Positions 4,754-17,595 of a DNA stretch of 33,255 nt are shown here, piece by piece. Every line of letters begins with the position of its first letter. The first letter of the stretch is position 1. Made by a program: the position numbers and the translations under genes. The DNA is taken from IMG/VR virus record IMGVR_UViG_2737471834_000009; one strand, given 5' to 3'. Below the pieces are notes generated by a model. It saw nothing but the letters and a program-made list of their open reading frames with translations. It was not told the origin of the DNA and did no database searches. Source of the DNA: a virus. Its lineage: Duplodnaviria > Heunggongvirae > Uroviricota > Caudoviricetes.

Positions 4754-4811
4754 AAAAAGGGCGGCAGAGCAGTCACGGAGTAAAACTGATACCGCCAAAC
4801 GTCACCAGAAA
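4754..4811 (-). ncRNA. dicF: DicF small RNA (ftsZ-targeting sRNA) with intrinsic terminator
   Basis: Minus-strand sequence TTTCTGGTGACGTTTGGCGGTATCAGTTTTACTCCGTGACTGCTCTGCCGCCC followed by a T-run; GGCGG...CCGCC terminator hairpin; located between ydfC and dicB as in the Qin prophage. Confidence 0.8.
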
Positions 4812-5686: not shown

Positions 5687-5865
5687 GCTGACCTCATTTC
5701 CCCTTAACGCCGGGGTAGCGGAACAAAAACCTGCTGCATAGTTATTAAAGTTGAACCCTGCCGTCATGTTCTTACGCCTCGGGCTGGCTACTTAACCCCT
5801 GACCACTGCCGGGTAACTCGAAGTATTGCCTGGCGTTCTGTGGGGCGGGGTGGGTTTATGGATAC

Positions 5866-5895
5866 AATTTACAAATTAAAATTTAACTGGTCAAC
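5866..5895 (-). promoter_or_regulatory. putative pL-like promoter of the dicB operon, overlapped by operator half-sites
   Basis: Minus-strand -35 TTGACC (5894-5889), 17-bp spacer, -10 TAAATT (5871-5866); half-site TTTACAAAT overlaps the -10. Confidence 0.4.
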
Positions 5896-5927
5896 ATGTT
5901 TATTATTAAATTTGTAATTGCGAGCTG

Positions 5928-5962
5928 TTGCATCAGTCCCAAAATGGGACTACTATACAGTT
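5928..5962 (+). promoter_or_regulatory. putative promoter with palindromic operator for the HigB/HigA-like pair
   Basis: -35 TTGCAT (5928-5933), -10 TACTAT (5951-5956), with palindrome GTCCCA-AAA-TGGGAC (5936-5950) in the spacer; predicted start site at or next to the ATG at 5963. Confidence 0.4.
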
Positions 5963-6265
5963 ATGAAGATTATCTCAGTTAAAACACTCAGGGATTTTTG
6001 GGCGGAGAATCCTGATGCAGAACAACCGCTAAGGGCATGGGTGGATGAGGCGGCAAAAGCTGACTGGAAAAGCCCAGCAGACATTAAGGCACAATACCGA
6101 ACGGCCAGTATATTGAAAAACCGGCGCGTGGTATTCAACATAAAAGGTAATCATTACCGTTTAATTGTTGCAATTGCGTATCAGCGAGGATGGGTATTTG
6201 TTAAATTCATCGGAAACCACAAGGAATACGATGCTATTGATGCTGATACCATCGAACTGGAGTAA
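5963..6265 (+). CDS. HigB-like toxin (RelE/ParE superfamily mRNA interferase)
   Basis: 100-aa product MKIISVKTLRDFWAENPDAEQ...VFNIKGNHYRLIVAIAYQ...FIGNHKEYD resembles HigB family proteins from memory; toxin gene precedes the antitoxin as in higBA. Confidence 0.75.
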   Translation: MKIISVKTLRDFWAENPDAEQPLRAWVDEAAKADWKSPADIKAQYRTASILKNRRVVFNIKGNHYRLIVAIAYQRGWVFVKFIGNHKEYDAIDADTIELE

Positions 6266-6267
6266 GC

Positions 6268-6627
6268 ATGAACATCAAACCTATTCGTACAGAGCAAGAT
6301 TATGAAGCCGCGTTGCGTGCTGTTGAACCCATGTTCGACAATGAGCCCGAAATTGACACGCCTGAGGGGGATTTTTTTGAGGTGATGTGTTTGCTAATAG
6401 AGGAATATGAAAAAAAACATTATCCCATTGAGCCACCATCCCCAATTGAAGCTATAAGATTTCGCATGGAACAGCAGGGGCTGACTGTGAAAGATTTGGA
6501 ACCCGCAATTGGGAAAAAAAATCGGGTTTATGAGGTGTTGAATGGTACCAGAAGCCTTACGTTACCAATGATTCGCCGTCTTCATAATCAATTTGGTATC
6601 CCCCTGGAAAGCCTGGTTGGATTATAA
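6268..6627 (+). CDS. HigA-like antitoxin, HTH XRE family
   Basis: 119-aa product with C-terminal helix-turn-helix (LTVKDLEPAIGKKNRVYEVLNGTRSLTLPMIRRLHNQFGIP); starts 3 nt after the toxin stop. Confidence 0.75.
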   Translation: MNIKPIRTEQDYEAALRAVEPMFDNEPEIDTPEGDFFEVMCLLIEEYEKKHYPIEPPSPIEAIRFRMEQQGLTVKDLEPAIGKKNRVYEVLNGTRSLTLPMIRRLHNQFGIPLESLVGL

Positions 6628-6673
6628 AATCTGCTAGTCATTTGCCTGATGCTCGTTCCAGAAAAGGAATGCA

Positions 6674-7072
6674 TCAGGCAGTTTTGTTTTTCTGCCGCAG
6701 TAACTCTTCAAGTTTCCGTTTATAGAAATCGCGTTTTTGCTCCATATCACGAATGATCTGCTCTGCGTCGCTTTGAGGTAACTCATCTAAAAGCGATATG
6801 ATTTTTCGTTGTTGTTCTGTAAGTTGCGGTTGGTTGTCATTACTGGATACAGCCATTTTATCGCCGAGAGTTTCTTCTTCCATAAAGAACCAATGGACGG
6901 GATGTTGTGAGAGCTCTGCTAATTTTTCCAGTTTATCCATTCTTGGCATCACGCCTTTCAACCAACCTTGCACGGATTGGGGTTTTACACCAAGACGTCT
7001 TCCCAGCTCTGACTGGTTTATATTCAATTCCTGCAACACCTGCTGAAGGCGTTTTACAAAGATCATCACCAC
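6674..7072 (-). CDS. DicA-like prophage repressor (HTH XRE family, CI-like position)
   Basis: N-terminal HTH (LNINQSELGRRLGVKPQSVQGWLKG); acidic/basic C-terminal tail resembling DicA; divergent from a cro-like gene across an operator-containing intergenic region. Confidence 0.75.
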   Translation of the reverse strand: MVMIFVKRLQQVLQELNINQSELGRRLGVKPQSVQGWLKGVMPRMDKLEKLAELSQHPVHWFFMEEETLGDKMAVSSNDNQPQLTEQQRKIISLLDELPQSDAEQIIRDMEQKRDFYKRKLEELLRQKNKTA

Positions 7073-7120
7073 CCCTCGTAAACTAGTTCCGCGATCCTAC
7101 AGAAAAAATTGATAAGTGGC

Positions 7121-7162
7121 ATTACAAATAGAAGTTGAAATTTAAATTTAAATTTGTAATTA
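7121..7162. promoter_or_regulatory. putative OR-like operator/promoter region between repressor and cro-like gene
   Basis: Inverted half-sites TTACAAAT (7122-7129) and ATTTGTAA (7153-7160); the same half-sites recur at 5868-5918; candidate -35 TTGAAA at 7134-7139. Confidence 0.45.
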
Positions 7163-7192
7163 TCGGTGTCATCGTAAAGTTCGGAGGGAAAC

Positions 7193-7453
7193 ATGCAAAA
7201 AAGTACTCAAGTGAAAATCCTGTCAATAATGAGCCAATCAGAATTAGGGCGTCGTCTTGGTAAAACACCGCAAACCATAAGTGGGTGGTTTAAAAAACGA
7301 GTGCCAGCGGAGGAGGTTATACCAGCATGTGAGGCGCTTGACTGGGGAGTAACTCCGCATGAATTGCGCCCTGATAAATACCCTAATCCAACCGATGGTT
7401 TACCTGTTGAGTATCAGGCTAACGCACAAGCAGCGGCGGGAGTTGATTCATGA
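7193..7453 (+). CDS. Cro/YdaS-like transcriptional regulator
   Basis: 86-aa HTH protein (SQSELGRRLGKTPQTISGWF) divergent from the repressor; RBS GGAGGG upstream. Confidence 0.7.
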   Translation: MQKSTQVKILSIMSQSELGRRLGKTPQTISGWFKKRVPAEEVIPACEALDWGVTPHELRPDKYPNPTDGLPVEYQANAQAAAGVDS

Positions 7454-7875
7454 AAATCAAGCATGAACACATCCGCATGGCGATGAATGCCTGGGCGCAT
7501 CCAGACGGCGAGAAAGTACCGGCTGCGAAAATTACCAAAGCGTATTTCGAACTGGGTATGACGTTCCCGGAACTGTACGACGACAGCCATCCGGAAGCCC
7601 TGGGCCGTAACACCCAGAAAATTTTCCGCTGGGTGGAGAAAGACACCCCTGATGCGGTTAAAAAAATTCAGGCGTTGTTACCAGCTATCGAAAAAGCAAT
7701 GCCACCTCTGCTGGTGGCCCGAATGCGCAGTCATAGCTCAGCCTATTTTCGGGAACTAGTGGAGACGCGGGAACGACTGGTGAGAGACGCTGATGATTTT
7801 GTCGCAGTGGCGATCGCTGGTTTCAACCAGATGAATCGTGGTGGCCCTGCAGGAAATATTGTGGCTGTGCATTGA
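7450..7875 (+). CDS. YdaT-like protein (CII-position regulator/toxin-like family)
   Basis: 141-aa product beginning MKIKHEHI and ending VH, as in Rac prophage YdaT; start overlaps the upstream stop. Confidence 0.7.
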   Translation: MKIKHEHIRMAMNAWAHPDGEKVPAAKITKAYFELGMTFPELYDDSHPEALGRNTQKIFRWVEKDTPDAVKKIQALLPAIEKAMPPLLVARMRSHSSAYFRELVETRERLVRDADDFVAVAIAGFNQMNRGGPAGNIVAVH

Positions 7876-13358: not shown

Positions 13359-13639
13359 GAAGGAAACAAAACAGAAACAACAATTGCCGTTACCTGTTGT
13401 TACCATGGCAAGTAAACGTATCTCAGGCGAGCGCATTGCGCCGTTCTGACGCAGATAAATTAGCCTGGATAGAAGGTGCTGGCAATAAAAAATAGCGTTT
13501 TCTTATCGGTGTCGGTAAGATTGCTGCGGGTGCTTGAGGCTGTCTGCCTCAGGCATGCCACTGTAAGGCAGACAGAGAAAAGCCCCAGTTAACATTATGC
13601 GTCCGGCAAGACGCTTAACATTAATCTGAGGCTCAATCT

Positions 13640-13852
13640 ATGAACGGCAAATCTAGGTTAGCCTCTTACGCGCCGAAAGGCAAGGAGAAGCAGGCTATGA
13701 AGCAGCAAAAGGCGATGTTAGTCGCCCTGATCGTCATCTGTATTACCGTCATTGTGACGGCACTGGTAACGAGGAAAGACCTCTGCGAGGTACGAATCCG
13801 AACCGGCCAGACGGAGGTCACTGTCTTCACAGCTTACGAACCTGAGGAGTAA
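13640..13852 (+). CDS. Mok-like reading frame (in-frame N-terminal extension of Hok)
   Basis: 70-aa ORF containing the hok frame, as in chromosomal mok/hok loci. Confidence 0.55.
   Translation: MNGKSRLASYAPKGKEKQAMKQQKAMLVALIVICITVIVTALVTRKDLCEVRIRTGQTEVTVFTAYEPEE
13697..13852 (+). CDS. hok: Hok/Gef family type I toxin
   Basis: 51-aa product MKQQKAMLVALIVICITVIVTALVTRKDLCEVRIRTGQTEVTVFTAYEPEE is near-identical to remembered HokD/RelF; mRNA leader has the tac-like hairpin GCTTGAGGCTGTCTGCCTCAGG. Confidence 0.85.
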   Translation: MKQQKAMLVALIVICITVIVTALVTRKDLCEVRIRTGQTEVTVFTAYEPEE

Positions 13853-17285: not shown

Positions 17286-17361
17286 GGCCCTTTAGCTCAG
17301 TGGTGAGAGCGAGCGACTCATAATCGCCAGGTCGCTGGTTCAAATCCAGCAAGGGCCACCA
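17286..17361 (+). tRNA. tRNA, anticodon CAU (ileX/ileZ-like tRNA-Ile2; tRNA-Met not excluded)
   Basis: Manual cloverleaf: acceptor GGCCCTT/AAGGGCC, anticodon loop CTCATAA, T-loop TTCAAAT, CCA encoded; close to remembered ileX. Confidence 0.8.
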
Positions 17362-17362
17362 A

Positions 17363-17439
17363 CCGCCACTAGCTCATCAGGAAAGAGCGTCAACCCTTTA
17401 AGTTGAGTGTGCGAGGTTCGAGTCCCCGGTGGCGGTCCA
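17363..17439 (+). tRNA. atypical tRNA, anticodon loop CCTTTAA (anticodon UUU, Lys-like, with C at position 33)
   Basis: Manual cloverleaf: acceptor CCGCCAC/GTGGCGG (C1-G72), D-loop with GG, T-loop TTCGAGT, CCA encoded; isotype uncertain. Confidence 0.55.
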
Positions 17440-17441
17440 GT

Positions 17442-17517
<76 letters not shown>

Positions 17518-17520
17518 TAT

Positions 17521-17595
<75 letters not shown>

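Follow-up and report, generated by a model that had tools for sequence, protein, structure and literature searches.

We analysed the immunity region of a lambdoid (Qin/Rac-like) E. coli prophage, integrated beside ompW, in a 33,255-nucleotide stretch (IMG/VR record IMGVR_UViG_2737471834_000009; Caudoviricetes), called here the window. Two divergent genes for helix-turn-helix (HTH) proteins, a repressor and a Cro-like protein of the YdaS family, are separated in this region by a short regulatory region, and an early leftward operon lies downstream of the repressor gene. Four copies of an 8-mer, TTACAAAT, stand at the predicted leftward (PL) and rightward (PR) promoters, and we consider it likely that they are halves of the operators (OL and OR) through which the repressor and the Cro-like protein would run an immunity switch of the lambda kind. 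This reading draws on the statistics of the motif, its position at the promoters, its conservation together with the recognition helix of the repressor, its replacement in heteroimmune cassettes and the borders of the mosaic unit that carries it. Coordinates are collected in Table 1.

The original prediction placed inverted half-site pairs upstream of the dicB operon (5868-5918) and between the repressor and cro-like genes (7122-7160). Indeed, TTACAAAT has exactly four exact matches on the two strands of the whole window, and they form two outward-facing inverted pairs, 5869-5917 and 7122-7159, all within the two intergenic control regions. The halves are 41 bp apart, centre to centre, on the left and 30 bp on the right. 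Whole-window shuffling gave 1.24 expected copies, with four or more in 2 of 100 shuffles. In a stricter test, we asked for any 8-mer on both strands of both control regions, using dinucleotide-preserving shuffles; none arose in 5000 shuffles of the two intergenic regions, and 8 of 5000 had the same arrangement when only their cores (~25% GC) were shuffled. The arrangement is beyond chance even against the local AT-rich composition. In addition, the two control regions have a 14-mer (AATTACAAATTTAA) and a 12-mer (TTAAATTTGTAA) in common, a long form of the half-site (ATTACAAAT) can be read in three of the four copies, the 18-mer at 5869-5886 is complementary to 7142-7159 at 94%, and the OL2 region is 86% identical to 7141-7161. 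A motif search for further copies, suggested along with the prediction, gave a divided answer: the exact 8-mer occurs at the four positions only, and degenerate scans of the whole window were unspecific and returned no credible extra sites (22 matches to TTRCAR-N7-YTGYAA with up to 2 mismatches against ~11 expected; 10 matches to ATTACAAAT with up to 1 mismatch against 8.8 expected).

The motifs overlap the predicted core promoters PL and PR, the same motif standing at both control regions. At each promoter, one 8-mer occupies part of the spacer and extends into the TG/-10; the second lies upstream of the -35 at PL, and just beyond the -35 at PR. PL aligns column by column with dicBp of the Qin prophage (TTGACC-17-TAATCT) and with the TTGACy-17-TAGATT of relatives. 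The promoter predicted for the repressor gene, PRM, was recognized by conservation: positions 1, 2 and 6 of its -10 hexamer (T, A, T), with a TG just upstream, and the TG of its -35 are invariant in eight lineages. The candidate that the promoter scan offered for PRM (ATGACA 7172-7167, TAAATT 7150-7145) was rejected, as its -35 is not conserved in relatives.

With 30 or 41 bp from half to half, an inverted pair is too wide for one HTH-dimer site. Probably, each promoter has two operators head to head, both pseudo-palindromic and ~18-19 bp long, and each 8-mer forms the strong half of one of them. We counted matches to TTRCAR-Nx-YTGYAA at varied x inside the OR windows of eight loci, and found 23 matches for N7, 15 for N6 and 0-3 for other spacings, with three tandem sites per OR. 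Perfect palindromes occur in two relatives, L012 (TTGCAAATATTAATTGCAA; TTGCAA-N7-TTGCAA) and L016 (TTACAAGGTATATTTGCAA; TTACAA-N7-TTGCAA). In the window, candidate OR2 has one mismatch to TTRCAR-N7-YTGYAA, and perfect palindromes stand at the equivalent position in L012 and L016; candidate OR1 has 2 mismatches to the palindromic consensus. OL2 is separated by 5 nt from the PL -35, upstream of which it lies, and by 10 nt from the -35 of the candidate higBA promoter described below. The distal TTACAAAT at OL is kept in L002-4, L015, L021 and L022, and promoter function does not explain this half, since it is outside the core promoter. Among the operators of each control region, OR1 and OR2 are clear and OR3 is weak; no OL3 was found. 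At the position of the tentative OR3, relatives have near-perfect palindromes (L016, TTACAGAAAATTTCTGTAG; L012, TTACAAAAATATTCTGTAG). Its right arm coincides with the PRM -10, and its left arm in the E. coli/Salmonella group reads TATCAAT, which we take to resemble the core of an integration host factor site. The OR3 element may belong to the promoter instead, or bind another factor.

It is unlikely, though conceivable, that each promoter instead has one wide operator, so that the TTACAAAT...ATTTGTAA pair is a single site and a tetramer or octamer touches the outer halves, wrapping or bridging the promoter. Taken together, OR1 and OR2 do make a near-palindrome of 40 bp (80% complementary), both promoters have their strong halves facing outward, the inner weak halves match the consensus poorly, and PaaR2, which has the same role in prophage CP-933P, is reported to be an octamer (PMC8630535). 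The inner halves are, however, perfect in L012 and L016, which makes these ordinary 19-bp dimer sites; and Qin and phage SPN3UB have, at the corresponding places in their promoters, a 20-bp inverted repeat (the DicA operator Oc) and a 17-bp palindrome, respectively. The spacings point the same way. Those of the window differ by 11 bp, about one helical turn, which would suit a wide site, but among relatives the OL halves are 41-43 bp apart and the distal unit is inverted in Serratia, so that any argument from strict helical phasing, including the exact phasing of the 30- and 41-bp spacings that we had considered, is weakened. Two ~19-bp operators per promoter thus remain the preferred arrangement.

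The candidate sites are conserved among relatives with the same recognition helix. We collected 12 homologues of the repressor (47-89% identity) from E. coli, Salmonella, Sodalis, Serratia and Arsenophonus/Phlomobacter; all 12 keep the helix VKPQSVQGWL, and the layout of OR likewise. In the alignment of the repressor-cro intergenic region, 34 columns of the 67-column core are invariant, against 1 of 32 flanking columns, and 11 of 13 loci have a spacing of exactly 30 bp for the strong halves of OR. Conservation across genera also extends to the PL spacer, TTAAATTTTAATTTG, and this counts for an operator, because promoter spacers are not normally constrained in sequence. A scan of genome contigs gave 5 loci, all with the same recognition helix; the scan, therefore, added lineages but no test of co-variation. 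Separately, we noted that two loci from Phlomobacter/Arsenophonus endosymbionts (L020 and L023) have lost 7 bp between OR1 and OR2, in the stretch ~60-95 bp upstream of the repressor start, so that the strong halves are 23 bp apart; this possibly reflects decay of the switch.

Heteroimmune cassettes in the same slot carry other motifs. Five were compared (Qin, the O157 prophage L019, the PaaR-PaaA-ParE cassette L025, and phages Tritos and SPN3UB), and each has its own, different motif common to OR and PL; none has TTACAAAT at its OR or PL positions. H46, taken for CP-933P, turned out to be another heteroimmune prophage and served as a control. In a matrix of OR against PL regions, the longest shared k-mer was 12-18 nt on the diagonal and within the same-helix group, and mostly 5-9 nt off the diagonal; the exceptions were AT-rich matches of 10-11 nt with the related SPN3UB, and an unexplained 12-mer between an Arsenophonus OR and the Qin PL. 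The CI protein of SPN3UB is 40% identical to the window repressor over 105 aa and has the helix ATSQSVNGW, its Cro has changed in parallel, and its operators are TATCGAT palindromes at the same promoter positions. Qin and SPN3UB both have operator palindromes of their own at the OL1 position, the one in the SPN3UB PL spacer (TATCGATTGAATCGATA) being perfect and lying exactly there.

The mosaic borders enclose both site clusters. In thousands of further E. coli prophages, and in several phages, the match to the window stops at 5856-5860 on the left and resumes at 7438-7445 on the right, from which it follows that the unit swapped extends from the PL start site as far as the end of the cro-like gene and includes both clusters. 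The whole cassette is present at ≥99% identity in 148 genomes.

These comparisons also bear on whether the 8-mer could be a by-product of promoter architecture, PL and PR being paralogous AT-rich promoters with a TG/-10 and UP-like or curved A/T tracts. The proximal halves overlap the TG/-10 at both promoters, the regions are ~25% GC, and the distal half at PL occupies about -41 to -58, the usual place of UP elements. At PR, however, the distal half lies elsewhere (-31 to -48) and yet is identical in sequence. Moreover, heteroimmune cassettes keep the PL -35, -10 and leader but have the spacer and upstream sequence replaced by their own repeats, the spacer is conserved only within the same-helix group, and the pattern seldom arises even when the AT-rich cores are shuffled. 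We consider such an origin very improbable, and operators the better account of the motif.

Little also speaks for sites that serve mainly the Cro-like YdaS protein or the antitoxin HigA, rather than the repressor; we give this almost no credence. The cro-like gene does lie in the same mosaic cassette, and its HTH is conserved with the sites and resembles that of the repressor. Sharing of sites by Cro and repressor is, however, the norm (lambda, 434, CP-933P), which makes Cro binding an addition and not an alternative. HigA has an HTH and is encoded between the two site clusters, but as a binder of TTACAAAT it was rejected: the sites persist in relatives without HigBA (L012, L015, L021, L022), and higBA has a unique palindrome of its own, in its own promoter.

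Several observations weigh against operators of the repressor as we read them. The proximal halves (5869-5876 and 7152-7159) coincide with the TG/-10, so that promoter function accounts for part of their conservation. The weak halves can hardly be recognized (OL1 and OL2 have 3-4 mismatches to the palindromic consensus), either N6 or N7 spacing may apply to OR1 and OL1, and the degenerate operator pattern is, as the counts above indicate, unspecific genome-wide. Relatives differ not only in the OL spacing and the orientation of the Serratia distal unit; L007 has TTGCAA at OR but CTACAA at PL, and tolerance of sequence must be assumed. SPN3UB keeps an OR3-like CTACAG-N7-CTGTAT although its other sites changed, and the co-variation of helix and sites rests on the one informative comparison with this phage. 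Finally, the start sites of PL, PR and PRM, at about 5859 (minus strand), 7170 (plus strand) and 7087 (minus strand), are predictions, and no promoter resembling PL turned up downstream of the cargo in L005/L006 or L010/L011.

The repressor has, in addition to its N-terminal HTH, a C-terminal helical LPxS[DE] domain and no peptidase domain. RefSeq and the homologues support its start at the ATG at 7066, and the gene has a ~20-nt leader with a Shine-Dalgarno sequence. Against the DicA model (NCBIfam NF007257) the repressor scores 49.9 bits (E = 2.7e-13; residues 3-129 of 130), whereas K-12 DicA scores 234 bits; it thus fails the curated DicA cut-off of 101. The two proteins align end to end at 22% identity (E = 2e-7), and a search of PDB sequences with the repressor gave weak HTH matches only. 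Judged by these comparisons, 'DicA-like' is valid for architecture only. Where the original prediction assigned the pairs, as OL and OR, to a DicA-like repressor, the assignment finds support in the promoter overlap, the conservation with the helix, the heteroimmune replacement and the mosaic unit; each pair, however, is probably not a single site, and the likeness to DicA does not go beyond architecture. The HTH of the Cro-like protein is 58% identical to that of the repressor over 26 aa (E = 2e-9), and both proteins are conserved together with the sites; the Cro-like protein, thus, probably reads the same candidate sites, as in 434 and CP-933P.

In the switch that we propose, the repressor and the YdaS/Cro-like protein would recognize a half-site with the core TTACAA (long form ATTACAAAT). 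Leftward transcription from PL, with OL1 in the spacer and -10 and OL2 just upstream of the -35, would drive ydfABC-DicF-dicB; rightward transcription from PR, with OR1 in the spacer and -10 and OR2 over the -35, would drive the cro-like gene, ydaT and the replication genes. In the lysogen, repressor at OL1/OL2 and OR1/OR2 may occlude RNA polymerase at PL and PR, and repressor at OR2 would be placed to activate PRM, as are lambda CI, DicA and PaaR2. The weaker element over the PRM -10 (7097-7115) could serve negative autoregulation or be a preferred site for Cro. HigBA (5963-6627), predicted to be transcribed toward the repressor gene, occupies the slot that rexAB fills in lambda. Binding, the order of occupancy, PRM activation, cooperativity and any looping between OL and OR are what we infer from the arrangement of the sites.

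The higBA genes are arranged as in HigBA type II systems, in toxin-first order with a 2-nt gap between higB and the higA-like gene. Their candidate promoter was read from the sequence; the scan, which requires 9 of 12 matches, did not pick it up. Its spacer holds a perfect palindrome, GTCCCAaaaTGGGAC (5936-5950), which is unique in the window and likely to be the HigA operator. L002-4 and L007 retain both elements in the same geometry, though not the same hexamers. The higB ATG is 6 nt after the candidate -10 and has no Shine-Dalgarno sequence, so that higB mRNA may be leaderless, with a predicted start site at about 5963. The hairpin of the candidate terminator and the stop codon of the convergent repressor gene overlap; the repressor strand has no T-run after the 6642-6681 hairpin, and PRM transcripts might, therefore, read antisense into higA.

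The slot between the repressor gene and OL2 varies among relatives, as a hotspot for cargo. It is empty in Sodalis and Arsenophonus, and holds HigBA in E. coli and one Salmonella lineage, a gene of the PLD family (PF13091) in a second Salmonella lineage, PaaA2 with a TM2-domain protein in another, and two small unknown ORFs (open reading frames) in Serratia. That OL- and OR-like operators bracket a HigBA-like insertion agrees with these comparisons, in which the slot is empty or filled with other cargo. HigBA is probably autonomous cargo, with its own candidate promoter, operator palindrome and terminator. It could nevertheless be coupled to the lysogenic or induced state, through repressor occupancy, OL-OR looping or convergent transcription, because OL2 is 10 bp from the higBA -35, the module lies inside the ~1.25-kb segment that would be looped, and it shares a hairpin with the repressor gene; the predicted start sites of higBA and PL are back to back, ~104 bp apart. 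We think such coupling distinctly unlikely.

Among characterized systems, the closest are Qin DicA/DicC and CP-933P PaaR2/YdaS/YdaT. Qin has the same gene order and flanks, from the repressor through PL (dicBp) to ydfA-ydfB-ydfC-DicF-dicB, with a divergent cro-like gene. Its DicA is, like the window repressor, a short protein with an HTH and a C-terminal helical domain and without a cleavage domain, and the operator repeats stand at the same positions, Oc being at the OR1-equivalent position of the dicC promoter. Oc has been proven in vivo, and overlaps the -10 of this cro-side promoter (PMC3441716). In contrast to the TTACAAAT-type sites of the window, the Qin operator reads TGTTAG...CTAACA (Oc type TTGTTAG-N6-CTAACAA), dicA and dicBp have no cargo between them, and DicC shows no relationship to the YdaS-like protein (19% identity).

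CP-933P (Sp12 of E. coli O157:H7) resembles the window in having a toxin-antitoxin module (paaA2-parE2) in the immunity region, at the rexAB position, and YdaS (Cro-like) and YdaT (CII-like) partners with a YdaT operator at their junction. Several ~18-bp repeats over PR and PRM make up its OR, and matching OL repeats lie at a PL that proved to be repressed, as established by electrophoretic mobility shift assays, footprinting and reporters (PMC8630535); the footprinted YdaT site is TTGATT-N6-AATCAA (PMC9986795). Its published operator consensus (GTTTAGTAA), however, is unlike the window sites. The toxin-antitoxin type differs too (PaaA2-ParE2 against HigBA), as does its wiring, since it is co-transcribed with the repressor gene, whereas higBA is on the opposite strand with its own candidate promoter and operator; and paaR2 is reported to be leaderless, in contrast to the window repressor gene. 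A BLASTP comparison of the window repressor with the PaaR type, represented by the PaaR-like protein of L025 and not by CP-933P PaaR2 itself, gave E = 12, which is not significant. The L025 cassette was found via PaaA2, and its motif is AATAGC-N3-GCTATT, not the published GTTTAGTAA.

Lambda and the window have in common pseudo-palindromic operators shared by OL and OR over PL and PR, cargo between the repressor gene and OL, and an OR2 that abuts a weak PRM -35. The predicted centres of OR2 and OR3 relative to PRM are about -44 and -19; in lambda they are -42 and -19. The window repressor, however, has a fold unrelated to that of lambda beyond the HTH and no RecA-cleavable domain, there are two clear operators per region, and OL and OR are ~1.25 kb apart, as against 2.3 kb in lambda. 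With 434, the likeness is in the near-identical HTH motifs of repressor and Cro, and in ACAA within the half-site (TT-ACAA-AT). The operators of 434 are ACAA-N6-TTGT; in the relatives of the window the spacing of the half-sites is N7, not N6. Sequence matches to 434 repressor and 434 Cro are weak and not significant (E = 0.13-0.85). The CI of SPN3UB and FSL SP-016 is the closest repressor in an isolated phage, with the same layout of PL, PR and PRM, and SPN3UB has the same YdaS-like Cro (59% identity); it differs in its helix, in its TATCGA-type palindromes and in having no HigBA.

Some observations concern the cassettes of relatives and the surroundings of the switch. The two Salmonella lineages in which no PL was found, L005 and L010, have a near-perfect palindrome of the operator type, TTACAACAAAAAACTGTAG (1 mismatch; L005 7572-7590, L010 8338-8356), 3.5-4.3 kb downstream of the repressor and just upstream of a 67-aa/DUF2335 operon on the other strand; it could be a displaced OL or mark an additional regulated operon. 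In phage Tritos (L027, 1080-1833), the annotated starts of cro and CI leave 7 bp between the divergent genes; both ORFs have probably been called too long, and a real intergenic region of ~80 bp would hold the AGTAC-type repeats. The PL leader (5768-5860, minus strand) is conserved across genera and immunity types, with a core at ~5768-5793, AAGTAGCC(A)GCCCGRGGCRTAMGAA. Rfam had nothing that matched it, no structure in it covaried, and the one invariant hairpin predicted is 3 bp long. Within the core are a GAGG and an ATG (5767); translation from this ATG would make DUF1391/YdfA 27 codons longer than the RefSeq start does. The core may, therefore, be a ribosome-binding site with its start codon, not an RNA element.

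The gene calls around the motifs in the original prediction are borne out by ORFs, Pfam, the RefSeq annotation of an identical prophage and the Rfam match to DicF. The YdaT operator lies at the cro-like/ydaT junction and coincides with the right-hand mosaic junction. Further right are a sok antitoxin RNA (hok/sok locus) and a cluster of four tRNAs, at 13528-13702 and 17286-17592. Short repressors of the DicA type are inactivated by antirepressors such as Rem (PMC10448788). No homologue of a Rem-type antirepressor was found in the window, and there is none beside hok/sok, unlike in Qin.

Table 1. Features of the immunity region and its surroundings, and motifs of the heteroimmune cassettes (positions in the window unless a locus is named)
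Feature	Position	Strand	Basis or remark
Exonuclease, ydfD, dicB	left of 4759	-	ORFs, RefSeq
DicF RNA	4759-4810	-	Rfam, 76.7 bits
ydfC, ydfB, DUF1391/ydfA	up to 5767	-	ORFs, Pfam, RefSeq
Intergenic region L	5768-5962		Read from sequence
Immunity-specific mosaic cassette (OL/PL, higBA, repressor, OR/PR/PRM, cro-like gene)	5857-7440		Edges where other prophages and phages stop and resume matching
Predicted PL -10, TAAATT	5866-5871	-	Promoter scan, TTGACC-17-TAAATT
Predicted PL -35, TTGACC	5889-5894	-	Promoter scan; TTGAC invariant in PL alignment
TTACAAAT copies	5869-5876; 5910-5917; 7122-7129; 7152-7159	+; -; +; -	Exact matches
OL1, candidate operator, TTACAAATTAAAATTTAA	5869-5886		Strong half 5869-5876; in PL spacer, overlaps -10
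OL2, candidate operator	5900-5917		Strong half ATTTGTAA at 5910-5917
Candidate higBA promoter	5928-5956	+	TTGCAT (5928-5933), 17 nt, TACTAT (5951-5956); read from sequence
higB, toxin, 100 aa	5963-6265	+	Pfam HigB_toxin PF09907, 113.7 bits (cut-off 27), E = 4.8e-33; RefSeq HigB family toxin
higA-like gene, antitoxin, 119 aa	6268-6627	+	C-terminal HTH_3 (residues 63-115); phrog_1373
Candidate higBA terminator	6642-6693	+	Hairpin 6642-6681 and T-run; RNA fold -26.1 kcal/mol, z = -3.4
Repressor gene, 130 aa	6674-7066	-	Pfam, N-terminal HTH_3
Intergenic region R	7067-7192		Read from sequence
Predicted PRM	7094-7122	-	Weak -35 ATGCCA (7122-7117), 17 nt, -10 TAGGAT (7099-7094); conservation
OR3, tentative, TTATCAATTTTTTCTGTAG	7097-7115		Minus-strand reading; overlaps PRM -10; weak in window
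OR2, candidate operator, TTACAAATAGAAGTTGAAA	7122-7140		Strong half 7122-7129 abuts PRM -35; weak half is PR -35
Predicted PR	7135-7163	+	-35 TTGAAA (7135-7140), 17 nt, TG-extended -10 AATTAT (7158-7163); scan
OR1, candidate operator, TTTAAATTTAAATTTGTAA	7141-7159		Strong half 7152-7159; in PR spacer, overlaps TG/-10
Cro-like (YdaS family) gene, 86 aa	7193-7453	+	Pfam YdaS_toxin and HTH_3
YdaT (CII-like) operator, TTGATTCATGAAAATCAA	7443-7460		Exact TTGATT-N6-AATCAA; only match in window
ydaT, CII analogue	7450-7875	+	~95% identical to PDB 3C4R; E = 6.5e-80 to 8BT1
Replication genes	from 7941	+	ORFs, Pfam
Cargo slots without HigBA	L005 4506-5780; L010 4454-5049; L016 4414-5038		
Qin (DicA) cassette			OR-PL motif TGTTAGTCAT; Oc = TTGTTAGTCATAACTAACAA
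O157 prophage L019 cassette			OR-PL motif ATCAAAACAT; LexA-family repressor
PaaR-PaaA-ParE cassette L025			OR-PL motif AATAGCGATGCTATTT
Phage Tritos cassette			OR-PL motif ATGTACTAAAAGT
Phage SPN3UB cassette			OR-PL motif of TATCGA type

The immunity type described here is of the known lambdoid kind, with a specificity not yet characterized, and the locus does not overturn current understanding. It adds a probable operator code (TTACAA half-sites in ~19-bp units) and a predicted promoter map for an immunity type that at least 148 complete E. coli genomes carry and that has relatives in Salmonella, Sodalis, Serratia and Arsenophonus; no earlier study had dealt with any of them. Together with SPN3UB, Tritos, Qin, L019 and L025, the window makes up a natural panel for specificity swaps among short DicA-like repressors. 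HigBA is a second toxin-antitoxin module within a lambdoid immunity region, wired differently from the first, and bears on the idea that such modules stabilize immunity cassettes or exclude other phages. If HigBA were coupled to the switch, it would be a switch-linked device for exclusion or addiction, regulated unlike the co-transcribed PaaA2-ParE2.

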